IMG/VR virus record: IMGVR_UViG_3300025882_000423
Strand: one strand, 5' to 3'
Length of the DNA: 20,000 bases
Source: an uncultured virus (IMG/VR IMGVR_UViG_3300025882_000423)
Lineage: Duplodnaviria > Heunggongvirae > Uroviricota > Caudoviricetes
Numbering within the stretch: the stretch's first letter is position 1; the number at the start of each line of letters is the position of its first letter. The translations under genes and the position numbers were made by a program. The notes beneath the pieces were generated by a model. That model did not search any database. It was not told the origin of the DNA and saw nothing but the letters and a program-made list of their open reading frames with translations. Shown one piece after another: positions 16,170 through 20,000 of this stretch.

Positions 16170-17759
16170 ATGAGCAGAAAACATAAAAAAGCCGCTTTTA
16201 AAGCTGCACCGCCTACAGGCAAACCAGACACCAACTTGCAAGCTGGGCCGCGTACCAGCCTTGGCCACACACTTAATTATGCTAGCGTTAACACGCTTGA
16301 CCCTAGCCGTTTGGCCAATGCATTCAGGCAGGCAGATAGTGGCCAGATTACGCACCAGGCATCATTGTTTGAGTTGGTAGAAGAGCAAGACGCACATATT
16401 TATGCCGAGTTGGCCAAGCGTAAGCGCGGCATTACCTCATTGGGCTGGCAACTTGAGCCGTCTGATGATGCTGATCAGTCAGAGCTAGATCGTACTGATC
16501 AGCTGGAAGATATGATCCGCAAAATCCCCAATATTGAAGACGCACAATATGACTTGGCTGACGGTATAGGCAAAGGCTTTAGTGCGCTTGAAATAGAGTG
16601 GCGCTTTGGCGCAGAATGGCTACCAAAAGCACTGCACTATGTGCCGCAGCGTGACTTTGTGCTGCATGATAAAGACCGCCACTTACAATATAACGGCACA
16701 GGCATACCGGAAGATTTAAGACCGTTTGGCTGGGTGATTCACGAGCATAAAGCTAAGTCTGGCTATATGGAGCAATCAGCGTTATTTCGCGTGTTGGCGT
16801 GGACGTATGCTTACAAAGCCTACACGATTAAAGATATGCAGCGCTTTTTAGAGCTGTACGGCTTGCCGCTGCGCTTAGGTAAATACCCTGCGGGCATCGA
16901 TAAAGCCTCACGCGACCAATTGCTCAAAGCCGTGAGGTCAATCGGTAATGATGGCGCTGGCGTAATACCAGCCAATATGATGATTGAATTTGTCCAGGCA
17001 CAAGCTAAAGGCAATGTCACCGACTTTTTAAGCAATATAGAATATTGGGAGCAAAAACAAAGTAAGGCTATTTTGGGCGGTGAGCCTGACGGTAAGTCGA
17101 TGACTGAAGCGCGCATTATGTTATTTGATAAAACGCGTCGAGAGATCATGCTGCACGATGTATCACAAATGCAGCCGACACTCACCGAGCAGCTGGTAGC
17201 ACCTATCAATTTATACAACGGTATCTTTACGCCAGACCGCATGCCCAAGTGGTCATACTTAACCCAAGAGTCTGTTGATCAGCAAAAAATGGTTACCGTG
17301 TTGCAAGCGGCTACAGGGCTAGGCATGGAGATTAGCCTAGAGTATGCGCATGAGGTAATGCAAATACCAAAAGCTGAAAAAGGCGCGCGATTGCTTGGCA
17401 AGGTTGCCGAACCAAAGCAAGACCAGGATAAACCAAAGTCGGAAAAACCAGAGCCAAAAGAAGATGACGAAGATGAAACCAAAAGCGCACTCACACGCTT
17501 GGCCACACTGGCAAAACAGCAAGGTGCAAGCGCTGATCTAACCGATGCTTACACTGCACAACTGGCTGCACTTGGTGCAAAACATGAAGCCACATTGGTG
17601 CAAAAGATATCAGCCGTGGTGGCCGAGGCTGGCGACTTTGATGAGGCGATAGCAGGCATAGAAGCGCTGGCTGTTGACTTTAAAGTGCCAGCACTGGCAG
17701 AGGTGATTGCGCTTGGTTTGGCCGCAGCGAATTTGGGTGGACGCAGTGAGGTAATATAA
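16170..17759 (+). CDS. Portal protein (Mu gp29 / DUF935)
   Basis: LFE..EE.D.H..AEL.KRK, D.I.KG.S..EI.W, F.E.YGLP.R.GKY, SKAILG. Confidence 0.93.
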   Translation: MSRKHKKAAFKAAPPTGKPDTNLQAGPRTSLGHTLNYASVNTLDPSRLANAFRQADSGQITHQASLFELVEEQDAHIYAELAKRKRGITSLGWQLEPSDDADQSELDRTDQLEDMIRKIPNIEDAQYDLADGIGKGFSALEIEWRFGAEWLPKALHYVPQRDFVLHDKDRHLQYNGTGIPEDLRPFGWVIHEHKAKSGYMEQSALFRVLAWTYAYKAYTIKDMQRFLELYGLPLRLGKYPAGIDKASRDQLLKAVRSIGNDGAGVIPANMMIEFVQAQAKGNVTDFLSNIEYWEQKQSKAILGGEPDGKSMTEARIMLFDKTRREIMLHDVSQMQPTLTEQLVAPINLYNGIFTPDRMPKWSYLTQESVDQQKMVTVLQAATGLGMEISLEYAHEVMQIPKAEKGARLLGKVAEPKQDQDKPKSEKPEPKEDDEDETKSALTRLATLAKQQGASADLTDAYTAQLAALGAKHEATLVQKISAVVAEAGDFDEAIAGIEALAVDFKVPALAEVIALGLAAANLGGRSEVI

Positions 17760-18028
17760 TGATAGGCAAAAGACTTTATAGAGAAGATGGCGAAGAGAAT
17801 TTTCTAAATCGCATTTTTAATACACATGGCTCCTATGGAACGGCCAATGGCAAAGACTGGTTTTGCTCAACACCCAATGGATTGTTTGGTAATATCAGCA
17901 ACCATTCTGTAACTGAGCATGAAGATGGCACAATCACTGTGTCGCCATCAATATTAGTATCACAAAGTCATAATAATTTAAGTTGGCATGGATGGCTTGA
18001 AAAAGGCATCTGGCGTGAGTGCTCTTAA
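17759..18028 (+). CDS. Inserted hypothetical protein (89 aa), DUF6527-like C-terminal motif
   Basis: DGTITVSPSIL...WHGWL.KG.W. TAATG-coupled to the portal upstream and to MuF downstream. GAGG RBS. AT-richer than its neighbours. Confidence 0.75.
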   Translation: MIGKRLYREDGEENFLNRIFNTHGSYGTANGKDWFCSTPNGLFGNISNHSVTEHEDGTITVSPSILVSQSHNNLSWHGWLEKGIWRECS

Positions 18029-19326
18029 TGGCAGTCAATCCCACTCAACTCCCATTCAAAGAAGCGATCGCTTTCTACCGCGATAAAATCAAACTGCCAA
18101 CCAGCGGCTGGACTGATATTTGGGAAGAGCAGCACAGCAAAGCCTTTGTGGTGGCTGGTGCTCAATCTGACGCGCTGCTTGAGGACTTTTACAACGCCTT
18201 GCAAGATGCTAAACAAAACGGCGGTGGCTATGCCGACTTTAAAGAACGCTTTGGCCAAATAGTCGATAAACACGGCTGGAGCTACAACGGAACACCAGGC
18301 TGGCGCAGCCGCATAACATACGATACCAATATTACGCAGGCTTATAGCGCTGGCCGTTATGTGCAAATGCGAGAAGTTAAGCACCTACGGCCATACTGGC
18401 AGTATGAGCACACCAGCATTGAGCACCCACGATTAGAGCATAAATCATGGGATGGCATTATTCTGCCAGCCGACGATGCATGGTTTGATACGCACATGCC
18501 CCAAAACGGCTGGGGTTGTAAATGCCGTATTCACTCGCTTAGCAGTTATGAGGCCGAACAAGCTTGGATGGCCAAAGGCAACACTGGCCCAGATGAAGCG
18601 CCAAAAATCATTTGGGAAGATAAAATCGTCGGCAAAAACGGCAGCAACCCGCGCGTAGTAAGCACGCCTGAAGGCATTGACCCCGGCTTTGCATATAACC
18701 CGGGTAAAGCGTATTTAGAGCCGCACAGCCCATATCCCTATGGATATGAGGCCATCAACCCTAAAAATATTAACAAGAGTGGGCATTATGTGCGCACGGC
18801 CAACTTTGATGAACCGCTGCCAGCCACGCCCATGCAGCCACATTGGCTTAATGATAAATCAATCTCAGGTGAAGCTGCAGTCATTAACTTTTTAGATTTC
18901 TTTAATGCTGACCTCAATAATGCTAGCGTGTTTACTGACAAGGCTGGGGTTAACATCAGCATATCAAAAGCCTTGTTTATTGAGGGCAAAGACAAAGCGT
19001 CAGACCAGTTTAAGTGGCTTGAGGCTGAGGGTAAAGCTGCTAGATTAGAGTATTTAAACTTGTTAGCTCTCTCAATTGCAGACCCAGACGAGATATGGTG
19101 GCAATGGGAAAAAGAACGAAGCGAAAAAGGCCGGTGGCGCTTACAGCGTCGATACCTAAAAACGTTTGAGATTAGCGGTGATACTAAATATGCTATTAGC
19201 TCATTTAGTTGGAACCATAAAACAGGCTGGCAAGGTGCCACGACTTTTGTGCCAGATAACAAAGACCCAGCTGAGTATTTTGCTAAGCAACGTCTTGGTA
19301 GACTGGTTTATAAACGCACAAAATAA
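18028..19326 (+). CDS. MuF (gp30) minor head protein fused to a C-terminal PBECR2-like nuclease-fold domain
   Basis: MuF domain: PF.EAI.F...K, AF.VAG, TN...AYSAGR, PYW.Y, R.EH..WDG..LP.DD.W..H.P.NGWGC.C, DPGF.YNPG. C-terminus: LLA..I.DPDEIW...L.RRYL..F...W.G.T.F...Y..KQR.G.L.Y.R. Start ATG 18028. Confidence 0.88.
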   Translation: MAVNPTQLPFKEAIAFYRDKIKLPTSGWTDIWEEQHSKAFVVAGAQSDALLEDFYNALQDAKQNGGGYADFKERFGQIVDKHGWSYNGTPGWRSRITYDTNITQAYSAGRYVQMREVKHLRPYWQYEHTSIEHPRLEHKSWDGIILPADDAWFDTHMPQNGWGCKCRIHSLSSYEAEQAWMAKGNTGPDEAPKIIWEDKIVGKNGSNPRVVSTPEGIDPGFAYNPGKAYLEPHSPYPYGYEAINPKNINKSGHYVRTANFDEPLPATPMQPHWLNDKSISGEAAVINFLDFFNADLNNASVFTDKAGVNISISKALFIEGKDKASDQFKWLEAEGKAARLEYLNLLALSIADPDEIWWQWEKERSEKGRWRLQRRYLKTFEISGDTKYAISSFSWNHKTGWQGATTFVPDNKDPAEYFAKQRLGRLVYKRTK

Positions 19327-19352
19327 AAACGCTACCTCTGCATGGGTAGCGT
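19320..19352 (-). terminator. Intrinsic terminator on the - strand
   Basis: Minus strand ACGCTACC-catgcaga-GGTAGCGT followed by TTTTATTTT. The U-tract exists only in the antisense direction. Confidence 0.75.
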
Positions 19353-19406
19353 CTATGGAGCAGATTGGTGGGTTATGCAGAACCGCAACTTCATCTCCAC
19401 GCGAAT
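19320..19406 (-). ncRNA. Candidate small RNA (about 80-85 nt), antisense to the late operon
   Basis: Bounded by a sigma70-like promoter and a terminator. Two hairpins have complementary loops (CUGCAU and cAUGCAGa). Confidence 0.6.
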
Positions 19407-19410
19407 GGTT

Positions 19411-19439
19411 AGTATATGCAACTTGAATTTAAAATACAA
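19411..19439 (-). promoter_or_regulatory. Antisense sigma70-like promoter overlapping the gpG start
   Basis: Minus strand TTGTAT (19439-19434), 17 nt, TATACT (19416-19411). Confidence 0.6.
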
Positions 19440-20000
19440 GATATAGATACACTTAAATCAATGCAGCGCATTCAAAGCATGCTGCAGCATCCAGACCACT
19501 TACTTAAGAGCCTTGGCGAAAGCTTGCTACGCGTTAATAAAAAGCGACATGCACAAGGCTTAGCACCAGACGGCACACCGTGGAAACCTAACGCCAAAAG
19601 CACCTACGACGCATACGCCAGCGGCCTAAGCAAAAGCAGCTATGGGAAAGATGGCAGGCTTAATGCCAAAGGCGCAACCAAAGTGGCCAACAAAAAGCCA
19701 CTGCATGCATCAGGCGACATGCTTAACTCGTTAAACTATCAGGTAGCAGACAATGAATTGAAACTGGGTTTTGATGGAGAGCGCAACGCAAAGCTAGCGT
19801 TTTGGCATCATGGAGGCACTGATCCATACTTGATACAACCATTGAATAAACGTGCTTTAGCGTTCGGTGGTATAGTGGTTAAAAAGGTCAATCACCCGGG
19901 CTTAACTGCACGACCACTTTTAGACATGCCAGCGAGTGATTTAGTCTTAATTCAAAGCGTAGTTGCAGACCATTTAAAAGTAGTTTTAAACAGAGTTTAA
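19416..20000 (+). CDS. Virion morphogenesis protein (Mu gpG / gp31 family)
   Basis: L...GE.L......R......PDG.PW.P, L..SG...NS, A..HHGG, PG..ARP.L. Follows MuF. Stop TAA at 19998-20000. Confidence 0.9.
   Translation: MQLEFKIQDIDTLKSMQRIQSMLQHPDHLLKSLGESLLRVNKKRHAQGLAPDGTPWKPNAKSTYDAYASGLSKSSYGKDGRLNAKGATKVANKKPLHASGDMLNSLNYQVADNELKLGFDGERNAKLAFWHHGGTDPYLIQPLNKRALAFGGIVVKKVNHPGLTARPLLDMPASDLVLIQSVVADHLKVVLNRV

Follow-up and report, generated by a model that had tools for sequence, protein, structure and literature searches.

A predicted small RNA opposite the MuF-gpG spacer of Mu-like phages and its probable link to the PBECR2 domain of MuF

The described systems closest to the locus considered here are toxin-antitoxin loci, phage antisense RNAs, the pRNA of phage phi29, and protein immunity factors. 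In the type III system ToxIN, ToxI consists of tandem repeats encoded ahead of the toxin gene, on the same strand, and the toxin processes it. Type I examples include RatA/txpA and SR4/bsrG, both from Bacillus subtilis prophages, and RNA II of the pAD1 par locus. Among phage antisense RNAs, sar extends over both the start codon and the ribosome-binding site of the message it targets; c4, whose covarying loops define specificity types, is excised from a longer transcript and base-pairs with targets at separate sites. The phi29 pRNA, which is 120 to 174 nt long and has a three-way junction, binds the connector and is needed by a terminase-less, protein-primed phage. For BECR-fold RNases, protein immunity is known in the form of barstar and the colicin E5 and D immunity proteins. 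Head proteins of the MuF type that carry an effector domain at the C-terminus are believed to enter the host by injection. Immunity genes come after MuF polymorphic toxins in the available text of PMC5576092.

We analyzed a 20,000-nt stretch of DNA from an uncultured tailed virus (Caudoviricetes; IMG/VR record IMGVR_UViG_3300025882_000423), hereafter the window. A gap of 89 nt (19327-19415) separates the gene for a 435-aa MuF protein, whose stop codon ends at 19326, from gpG, which starts at 19416. The initial annotation had placed an independently promoted RNA on the opposite strand of this gap, with two hairpins and complementary loops, and had suggested that it could neutralize the RNase-fold domain of MuF. 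Reading the sequence directly, we found the gap, promoter, hairpins, and loops at the coordinates claimed for them (Table 1). A protein-coding spacer was ruled out: no ORF fits because the lengths among relatives (82 to 108 nt) vary in steps that are not multiples of three and the changes in the stems are compensatory. Among deposited phages, a DNA similarity search gave no match.

Table 1. Positions of the genes, protein residues, and predicted RNA features at the MuF-gpG junction of the window
Feature	Position	Strand	Basis or remark
MuF minor head protein gene	18019..19326	+	Pfam Phage_Mu_F, 54.7 bits (cut-off 29.6)
PBECR2 domain of MuF	residues 291-432, nt 18889-19314	+	Pfam, 86.2 bits (cut-off 27.1)
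Coupled MuF residues	K332 (19012-19014), R342 (19042-19044), T408 (19240-19242)	+	residue-element coupling
gpG virion morphogenesis gene, Phage_tail_S family	19416..20000	+	Pfam, 44.6 bits
-35 hexamer TTGTAT	19434..19439	-	read directly; within gpG codons 7-8
-10 hexamer TATACT	19411..19416	-	read directly; overlaps the A of the gpG start codon
Predicted transcription start, ~19404	19402..19406	-	inferred from the usual 6-8 nt distance to the -10
Hairpin B: outer stem GUGGAG/CUCCAU, internal loops, apical stem GGUU/AACC	19355..19400	-	minimum-free-energy fold
Loop B, CUGCAU on the RNA	19375..19380	-	pairs with loop A
Hairpin A, terminator stem-loop, ACGCUACC / GGUAGCGU	19329..19352	-	minimum-free-energy fold; top terminator-like scan match
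Loop A, CAUGCAGA on the RNA	19337..19344	-	complementary to loop B
U-run after hairpin A	19319..19328	-	covers the MuF stop codon (19324-19326) and its last codons

By itself, the window sequence is not beyond chance, and the case for an RNA rests on the relatives. The fold z-score was -1.43 on the minus strand, where 20 of 200 shuffles folded as well, and -1.05 on the plus strand. With 17 nt between them, the two promoter hexamers match the sigma-70 consensus at 8 of 12 positions; the scan tool did not call this promoter because the -35 has only 3/6 matches. An intrinsic terminator is indicated by the top terminator-like scan match, by a U-run with 9 U among the 10 nt following the stem, and by covariation of that stem. 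Between loops A and B we counted the seven Watson-Crick pairs to which the initial annotation had said the complementarity could be extended, or eight if one G-U is included.

Among close relatives, the element was present in 39 of the 42 that could be assessed. Covariance-model matches scored 83 to 104 bits, with a single match per locus, and the element was kept over MuF identities from 30 to 100%. In the class-1 alignment (14 sequences), 97.2% of cells were paired and 9 pairs showed double changes; 6/8 pairs of the hairpin A stem had changed on both sides, and the helices of hairpin B covaried as well. Class-2 helices were 92.9% paired and those of class 3 were 100% paired (10 pairs). Within each class, none of 500 shuffles matched the observed pairing or covariation score. 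MuF relatives at 29 to 37% identity, which have no gpG downstream, still carry a two-hairpin element with complementary loops after the MuF stop, followed by ~400 nt without a gene. Rfam 15 gave no relevant match at E <= 10 in positions 19000-19700 of the window or at E <= 1 in 12 relatives covering all three classes, so the Rfam search that the annotation had recommended matched no family. In 151 genomes of the host's order, covariance model R1 matched only the host MAG itself, and we found no description of the RNA in the literature on small or antisense RNAs of Mu-like prophages, PBECR2, and MuF antitoxins or immunity. The element belongs to a predicted, undescribed RNA family present in well over 100 phage loci.

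Pairing between the loops covaries across classes and in distant relatives, and it is realized through more than 12 different sequence pairs (e.g., CUGCAU/AUGCAG, CUGUA/UACAG, CCUGUAA/UUACAGG, UUGCAG/CUGCAA, AUCGC/GCGAU, and GGGCAUGCC). The longest Watson-Crick run between loop A and the hairpin B body averaged 5.92, compared with 4.39 for permuted partners; none of 2,000 permutations reached the observed average (25 distinct loops). The loop covariation that the annotation had suggested testing holds in class 1, where the kissing helix is 98.8% paired, but not in class 2, whose RNAs lack loop-loop complementarity (median of 4, which is the null level; n = 9). We rejected the idea that the RNA is a decoy resembling the tRNA-Cys anticodon loop, because loop sequences are not conserved and their letters change freely between relatives.

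The promoter was kept in all 27 unique sequences, scoring 8 to 11 of 12 at a fixed place with hexamers 16 to 18 nt apart. Every short-type relative (17/17) has a TTGxxx hexamer 17 nt from the -10 and a TAnnnT hexamer at the same offset (-5 to 0). In the long-type relatives (10/10), the -10 is a perfect TATAAT shifted to -22 to -17, and ATGCAA has taken over as the site of the -35. Since the -10 overlaps the gpG AUG, the RNA would start ~12 nt (short type) or ~29 nt (long type) upstream of that codon. The TTG of the -35 derives from Gln-8 of gpG, encoded by CAA in 17/17 short-type relatives. At these loci CAG is the commoner Gln codon (CAA:CAG, 185:238), and the chance of finding CAA in all 17 by codon usage alone is 1.8e-8 (synonymous-site test). 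The shift in promoter position goes with a matching codon change, in that the CAA shifts too. Covariation, promoter conservation, and the U-run back the annotated picture of a minus-strand RNA with its own promoter, two hairpins, and loop-loop pairing, and we think it very probable that a real minus-strand RNA gene, with a predicted transcript of ~80 nt, lies here.

Presence of the element follows the state of the PBECR2 domain. K332 was retained in 72 of 72 element-bearing MuF rows and missing in 10 of 10 element-less rows, an agreement across 82 of 82 labelled sequences for which element presence was assigned partly by eye. On the tree, each trait required six changes, and the two changed together in 6/6 phylogenetically independent contrasts (sign test, P = 0.031), the only six on which the coupling rests. 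The element was found only where PBECR2 keeps its conserved [F/L]-Lys motif, together with Arg and Thr, with one element-bearing sequence (L129) having changed T to I. In the element-less relatives, the decay is confined to the G-x-F-K-W-L segment, which has been replaced or deleted, its flanks staying nearly identical; those of the L065 and Ralstonia types retain Arg and Thr/Ser, the Lys motif being all that they have lost. The Arg and Thr pair moved in the same direction as the element in 4 to 5 of 6 independent pairs and in the opposite direction in none. R342 and T408 are present here and conserved in the family, and both are replaced in Mu F and JBD25. As given in the available portion of PMC5512222, the active-site set comprises an Arg/His in the first core helix and a C-terminal Thr/Ser; by that description we infer that R342 and T408 occupy putative catalytic columns of PBECR2. 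No column of the MuF-C alignment clearly tracked RNA class.

The sample of loci is biased, because two of the scans used conserved MuF motifs as anchors, and one of these motifs lies within PBECR2 ([ED]PDEIWW). A gpG-anchored scan left 22 of its 24 loci unusable as F-G controls, only L002 and L004 being Mu-like; 17 loci had an ORF of 156 to 241 aa overlapping the gpG-like start in P2 style, and 5 more were unassessable. Among the findings that the annotation had named as speaking against its idea was an element equally common behind MuF genes without the nuclease domain. Where MuF has a zincin-like, other, or no C-terminal domain, the next gene overlaps and the element is absent, and so the coupling stands on this count. 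The Lys match in 82/82 sequences and 6/6 contrasts likewise supports the proposed tie to the BECR-fold domain. The RNA is absent exactly where PBECR2 lacks a key residue, and for this reason we lean toward a functional coupling, with the two probably acting in concert.

A further argument, that the missing immunity ORF implies an RNA antitoxin, was weakened. Mu F orthologues normally end in PBECR according to the accessible text of PMC5512222. Moreover, Mu and JBD25 have no F-G spacer at all, and in four lineages (L059, L061, L074, and L079) an extra ORF of 106 to 285 aa lies between MuF and the RNA, which is kept. What remains of the initial reading is thus the RNA and its tie to the BECR fold, without the force of the immunity-ORF argument and without the tRNA-Cys decoy.

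The ORF-separated lineages, together with the distant relatives that lack gpG downstream, lead us to infer that the RNA probably acts in trans. The comparison points to an RNA of ~80 nt that would start near 19404 from the sigma-70 promoter overlapping the gpG start and end in the U-run over the MuF stop codon. Its predicted fold is a long hairpin with bulges, then a terminator hairpin, and its loops stay complementary though their letters change. By our reconstruction, the RNA and the PBECR2 [F/L]-Lys motif have been lost together six separate times. As to mechanism, we commit to a guess, which we hold tentatively. Made constitutively, in the lysogen and late in infection, the RNA would hold the nuclease domain in check in trans, much as an antitoxin does, and would probably bind it. 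The nuclease would thereby stay inactive in a lysogen or in a cell that is producing phage, up to the point at which MuF has been packaged and has reached a new host.

The main rival is antisense control of the late mRNA, which we consider unlikely. The same RNA would pair with the polycistronic message at the F-G junction, starting through its loops, and either lessen gpG translation or expose the MuF part to cleavage by RNase III and to decay, with sar in P22, OOP in lambda, and the 3'-overlapping type I antitoxins as precedents. By construction the RNA is perfectly complementary to the spacer, its promoter appears constitutive, and its terminator overlaps the MuF stop; it covers, however, neither the Shine-Dalgarno sequence nor the AUG of gpG. 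The short-type duplex would stop ~12 nt before the gpG start codon, within the ribosome footprint, whereas in 10 of 27 sequences (long type) the RNA ends ~29 nt upstream. Distant relatives have no gene for the next ~400 nt, and in four lineages inserted ORFs part the RNA from MuF. We saw no pairing with the start region of MuF (5.33 versus 5.41 permuted), in a test that is weak because the start motif was located in only 6/18 loci. Silencing of a harmful nuclease gene would account for the co-loss with the Lys motif too, but an antisense pair needs no selection for loop-loop complementarity on one strand.

It is also conceivable, if improbable, that the plus strand carries the function. The late mRNA itself would then hold an intercistronic structure that stabilizes the upstream message or that the PBECR2 RNase recognizes or cuts, an autoregulation comparable to the cutting of T4 mRNAs by the BECR-fold RegB, and the promoter and U-run of the minus strand would be of secondary importance. 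The available part of PMC5512222 cites the RegB precedent, and coupling to an active RNase suits a substrate role. Stems and loop complementarity exist on both strands, the plus strand folds as stably or more stably in 17/27 sequences, and in one relative (L048) loop pairing is longer on the plus strand. Against this stand the conserved promoter, with its position shift and synonymous CAA, and several features of the minus strand. Its U-run has a median of 8/10 in the 27 unique relatives (range, 4 to 9), compared with 4 on the plus strand, and persists behind a different ORF in L079 and L059. UNCG or GNRA tetraloops occur on the minus strand only, where they make up 8/12 of the class-2 apical loops. 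The closing pair of hairpin B is a minus-strand G-U in 9/27 sequences and would be A-C on the plus strand. Overall, G-U and A-C counts of 30:13 favor the minus strand, with 4 G-U and 0 A-C in class-3 helices, although the 13 A-C cells (9 in class 2) would read as G-U on the opposite strand. Taken together, the U-run, tetraloops, G-U versus A-C counts, and promoter favor the minus strand.

It seems very improbable that the RNA serves the virion as a structural cofactor or as cargo and is not a regulator. Rod-shaped monomers would join loop to loop, hand in hand like phi29 pRNA, while the Lys-bearing loop of the MuF C-terminal RNase fold grips the RNA at the portal. The RNA would ride in the capsid and be delivered with the nuclease as a guide, safety catch, or host-defense decoy, and the fast-changing loop pairs would set type specificity between competing phages. 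The narrower version, in which complementary end loops give dimers or rings that the RNA-binding fold at the MuF C-terminus keeps at the portal and that are packaged or injected with it, is more doubtful still. It draws on the two mutually complementary, covarying loops, but these are not complementary in class 2. An intramolecular kiss may be sterically awkward for adjacent hairpins of unequal length, and the RNA gene sits among the portal, MuF, and gpG genes on the genome map, which also includes a large terminase gene, a point against this reading. The coupling to the Lys motif and an RNA-binding role predicted for MuF-C in the available text of PMC5512222 speak for it; several related phages manage without the RNA, which speaks against it. 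Finally, a mere terminator insulating the phage end from host read-through, joined by chance hairpins and an AT-rich promoter look-alike, has a negligible probability: the single-sequence z-score of just -1.43, the weak -35 of the window, and the place of gpG at the close of the lysis-to-G operon, where inward transcription is plausible because host flank comes next, would suit it, but it is contradicted by covariation in every helix and between the loops, by promoter conservation, and by 83- to 104-bit matches over MuF identities of 30 to 100%.

The restraint that we favor bears on how a producing cell or lysogen copes with an active RNase domain. Against it, a virion protein that is expressed late, when the cell will soon lyse, may not require an antidote. 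Should the RNA restrain the nuclease or act as its partner, a virion-borne effector would have an immunity factor made of RNA, in a layout unlike those of types I and III; if the RNA is merely an antisense regulator, it would still add a widespread, undescribed small-RNA family to the transposable phages. The family should be easy to test, having clear boundaries, a predicted promoter and terminator, and natural compensatory and deletion variants, and a specific protein motif vanishes along with the RNA.

Compared with type III systems, the locus shares a structured RNA beside an endoribonuclease gene, a proposed direct neutralization, and joint inheritance and, here, joint loss. In place of a tandem array upstream on the same strand, it has a single-copy RNA downstream on the opposite strand, convergent and with its own promoter and terminator, and the protein is a 435-aa virion protein instead of a free toxin. 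Type I antitoxins resemble it as convergent prophage small RNAs that share or abut the terminator of a harmful gene and make their first contacts loop to loop. Their toxins, however, are small membrane peptides, unlike the MuF head protein; the overlap with MuF in the window is limited to the stop and last few codons, the rest of the RNA facing the downstream polycistronic RNA, and another ORF intervenes in four lineages. P22 sar, lambda OOP, and P1/P7 c4 are likewise RNAs of ~70 to 80 nt with their own promoter and terminator that oppose a phage operon. Unlike sar, the present RNA stops short of both the ribosome-binding site and the start codon. In contrast to c4, it has both covarying sites within one molecule, and the Rfam C4 family did not match the element in the window or in 12 relatives. 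With phi29 pRNA it has in common a location near head and packaging genes and, outside class 2, two mutually complementary, covarying loops; it differs in its length of ~80 nt, in the relatives that lack the loop match or the RNA, and in the presence of a large terminase. Immunity factors of BECR-fold RNases are proteins, and no ORF fits here, but the RNA is like them in lying directly after the nuclease-encoding end of the gene and, probably, in having its presence coupled to an active enzyme.

The window comprises bases 25321 to 45320 of a 46.3-kb viral record whose PHROG matches identify a Mu-like transposable prophage. Its minus strand carries, in order, genes for tail fiber, baseplate, tape measure, sheath, adaptor, and head protease, followed by the late activator and the B and A transposition genes; the plus strand carries regulator, holin, endolysin, spanin, large terminase, portal, F, and G genes. 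In Mu the lysis-to-G block is annotated as one late operon. Here this block (lysis, terminase, portal, F, and G) is inverted and lies at the right end of the phage, with G as the last phage gene (whole record; L092, L093, and L001). The open reading frame (ORF) 3′ of gpG is nonphage, and in the scan tables at least 25 related contigs of 32 to 39 kb end within about 1.2 kb 3′ of MuF. Beyond gpG lies a convergent 153-amino-acid ORF that has an H-E-x-x-H-like motif and no Pfam or PHROG family; it is probably host flank or a moron.

The candidate small RNA, of about 80 nt, occupies the 89-nt gap between MuF and gpG. The initial annotation had described a promoter, two hairpins, and complementary loops there, and that description was accurate: all were read in the sequence, and the loops pair over seven Watson-Crick pairs. 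The second hairpin (hairpin A) was the top-ranked site in a scan of the window for terminator-like sites. The promoter went uncalled in a promoter scan because its −35 matches the consensus at only three of six positions. With fold z-scores of −1.43 (minus strand) and −1.05 (plus strand) and no Rfam match, the window sequence taken singly is unremarkable.

Positions of the features discussed, in the window or in the named locus
Feature	Position	Strand	Remarks
MuF	18019-19326	+	Pfam Phage_Mu_F and PBECR2 (86.2 bits; cutoff, 27.1)
gpG	19416-20000	+	Phage_tail_S family
Promoter TTGTAT-N17-TATACT	19439-19411	−	Read directly in gap and first gpG codons
Bulged hairpin (hairpin B)	19400-19355	−	3′ of promoter
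Second hairpin (hairpin A)	19352-19329	−	After 2-nt linker from hairpin B
U-run, 9 U in 10 nt	Over MuF stop codon	−	3′ of hairpin A
89-amino-acid ORF	17759-18028	+	Portal-MuF interval; weak DUF6527 match (24.6 bits; cutoff, 23.6)
153-amino-acid ORF	L001 2330-2791	−	Just past window end
Inserted ORF	L059 3309-4163		285 amino acids
Inserted ORF	L061 3273-3617		115 amino acids
Inserted ORF	L074 3287-3646		120 amino acids; Lar restriction-alleviation family
Inserted ORF	L079 560-877		106 amino acids
Hairpin A remnant, Ralstonia prophage	L090 5182-5230
F-G spacer, other Mu-like phage	L002 2865-2967
F-G spacer, other Mu-like phage	L004 2873-2991
Spacer after diverged MuF	L250 2629-2725
Spacer after diverged MuF	L251 1331-1430

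Searching metagenomes with a MuF alignment as the query returned 57 loci (29 to 100% identity), of which 5 break off no later than the MuF stop and were left out of the element count. Among assessable close relatives (≥50% identity), 39 of 42 carried the element, and a Methylotenera MAG holds an identical copy. The exceptions have F-G gaps of 5 nt (L065 and L066) or 33 nt (L069). Two viral-contig scans each gave 80 further loci, many sharing samples. In the first, 56 loci matched one of two covariance models of the element (R1 or R2), 8 had class-3 or distant forms assigned by eye, and 10 lacked the element; 4 unassessable and 2 ambiguous loci were left unscored. The element is absent from Mu, PM105, and phiE255, where F and G overlap, and from JBD25, where they lie 1 nt apart.

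Hairpin B takes three forms: class 1, the form found in the window; class 2, in which the internal loop is invariant and a tetraloop forms the cap; and class 3. Pairing held in 97.2% of cells in class 1 (14 unique sequences), 92.9% in class 2 (8 sequences), and 100% in class 3 (7 sequences, 10 pairs), and fell to 23 to 43% in slid registers of the class alignments. In each class, none of 500 column shuffles reached the observed pairing or covariation score. Class 1 showed double-sided changes at nine pairs, including six of the eight terminator pairs. Pairing between the loops was likewise preserved despite changes of letter: the window has CUGCAU/AUGCAG, and relatives have GUGCAU with G-U ends, UUGCAG/CUGCAA (L079), CUGUA/UACAG, CUGCA/UGCAG, CCUGA/UCAGG, or CCUGUAA/UUACAGG. 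It also persists where MuF is only 29 to 37% identical, as GGGCAUGCC (L080), GGCUGCA/UGCAGCC (L087), CGGUGG/CCACCG (L083), AGCCC/GGGCU (L086), CUGCGG/CCGCAG (L200), and AUCGC/GCGAU (cultured Rhizobium phage RR1-B). When loop A was compared with the body of its own hairpin B (n = 25, one per distinct loop), the longest Watson-Crick run averaged 5.92, versus 4.39 with permuted partners (maximum, 5.0; 0 of 2,000 permutations reached 5.92). Loops of class 2 were unmatched (median run, 4; n = 9). In class 2, the invariant internal-loop string CUACUGC (A4 columns 35 to 46) retains the CUGCA core seen in the class-1 loop, but the terminator loop of the same RNA offers it no partner. The sequence fits loop pairing within one molecule or between molecules; since the hairpins are adjacent and of unequal length, an intermolecular contact is plausible.

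The element is very probably a minus-strand RNA gene, with four lines of sequence evidence favoring that strand. First, all 17 short-type promoters fit TTGxxx-N17-TAxxxT, and their −10 occupies positions −5 to 0 relative to the gpG AUG. All 10 long-type sequences carry an insertion that places the −10, there a perfect TATAAT, at −22 to −17, and their −35 is TTGCAT, the complement of ATGCAA. The codon supplying TTG tracks the promoter: Gln-8 is CAA in 17/17 short-type and no long-type sequences, and gpG codon 2 is CAA in 10/10 long-type versus 11/17 short-type sequences. CAG is commoner than CAA in the same genes (238 versus 185), so the chance of 17/17 CAA by codon usage alone is 1.8 × 10⁻⁸ assuming independent loci, which these are not fully; codon 8 is CAG in the element-less L065. 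Second, the U-run 3′ of hairpin A has a median of 8/10 on the minus strand versus 4/10 on the plus strand, and is retained where another ORF ends at that site. Third, minus-strand apical loops are UNCG or GNRA tetraloops in 8 of 12 class-2 cases, and terminator loops are UUCG or UACG in two sequences; their plus-strand complements are nothing special. Fourth, helix cells on the minus strand include 30 G-U and 13 A-C, and 9 of 27 sequences close hairpin B with an outermost G-U pair. Against this strand, class 2 accounts for nine of the A-C cells; folding energies do not discriminate. Promoter layouts are mixed mosaically with hairpin-B classes. Long-type loci (L038, L040, L043, L050, and others) have an extra 17 to 20 nt between hairpin B and the gpG start, with the TATA box inside a short inverted repeat (e.g., CGCC...GGCG) that, on the plus strand, competes with the outer stem of hairpin B.

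Presence of the element appears to be coupled to an intact PBECR2 domain. PMC5512222 identifies the C terminus of Mu F as a PBECR domain, predicted to be inactive in Mu with orthologues that are probably active RNases, and describes an active site made up of a C-terminal Thr or Ser and, in the first helix, a His that is an Arg in one family. We aligned the C-terminal domains using window numbering; which residues are catalytic is inferred. K332, R342, D357, E358, R377, Y379, and T408 are retained in all element-bearing sequences apart from one exception each in L129 (T to I), L141, and L179. The G-x-[F/L]-K motif is gone from every element-less lineage, between flanks that stay nearly identical to those of element-bearing relatives. 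The motif is replaced by GGVEWP in the L065 type and by GGFVAP or GSFTAP, with T to S, in the Ralstonia prophages; its segment is deleted in the L069 type (R to H, T to A). The Lys is absent from the L171 type (R to K) and JBD25 (R to S, T to A), and all key residues are changed in Mu. In a tree of 88 unique MuF proteins, 82 with an element label, the same 10 rows lack both the element and the Lys, no other labeled row lacks either, and each trait requires six changes. Lys and element were concordant in 6/6 independent pairs (two-sided sign test, P = 0.031), a coupling that rests on only six contrasts, with element scoring partly by eye and two scans anchored on conserved motifs. The Arg-Thr pair was concordant in four to five of the six and opposite in none. 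Behind MuF proteins with other C termini (zincin-like L253, L256, and L257; L254; the short L255; and the diverged PBECR2 of L252), the element is absent and the next gene overlaps. In Ralstonia solanacearum prophages (L090, L091, L163 to L167, and L237), hairpin A is all that is left of the element; it sits within a GUGG...CCAC frame, the −10 is decayed, and the Lys motif is lost. This remnant looks like a natural intermediate in element loss.

This coupling suggests a trans-acting RNA whose function either relies on an active PBECR2 or is made necessary by one. Trans action is also favored because the RNA survives inserted ORFs of 106 to 285 amino acids between it and MuF, persists 3′ of MuF where gpG does not follow, and shows conservation of a compact fold whose internal-loop bases are invariant. 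(The ORFs are inserted after the MuF stop, ahead of the terminator hairpin, and the element remains beside gpG.) Tentatively, the RNA would restrain the nuclease in an antitoxin-like manner, most simply through binding. This agrees with the central proposal of the initial annotation, that the RNA could neutralize or bind the BECR-fold domain, for which the co-loss of Lys and element is indirect support. The main rival, antisense control of the late mRNA, is somewhat unlikely: it accounts for the location and the apparently constitutive promoter but leaves unexplained the selection for loop-to-loop complementarity, an RNA that does not reach the gpG ribosome site, and the loci where no gene lies downstream. 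A plus-strand substrate or stabilizer is improbable, a pRNA-like assembly RNA very improbable, and the lack of any RNA gene scarcely credible. The suggested tRNA-Cys anticodon decoy was rejected because loop sequences are not conserved among relatives.

Two other Mu-like phages (L002 and L004), whose MuF has no PBECR2 match and a PBECR3 match below threshold, have a different conserved F-G spacer of about 100 nt with a strong minus-strand fold (in L002, −44.8 kcal/mol, z = −3.14, versus −27.2 kcal/mol on the plus strand) and a minus-strand TATAAT close to gpG; this spacer could hold an RNA gene of an analogous kind. In L250 and L251, the diverged, Lys-less PBECR2 MuF is followed by a spacer of about 95 nt; both spacers start with GGGATCT, and neither matched either covariance model.

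No Rfam family matched the element in the window or in 12 relatives that cover its three classes, and our search of the literature on small and antisense RNAs of Mu-like phages, PBECR2, and MuF immunity found no paper describing the RNA. It does not have the layout that defines type I toxin-antitoxin systems, nor that of type III; its likeness is to known loop-presenting small RNAs of phages and plasmids and, possibly, to RNA antitoxins.
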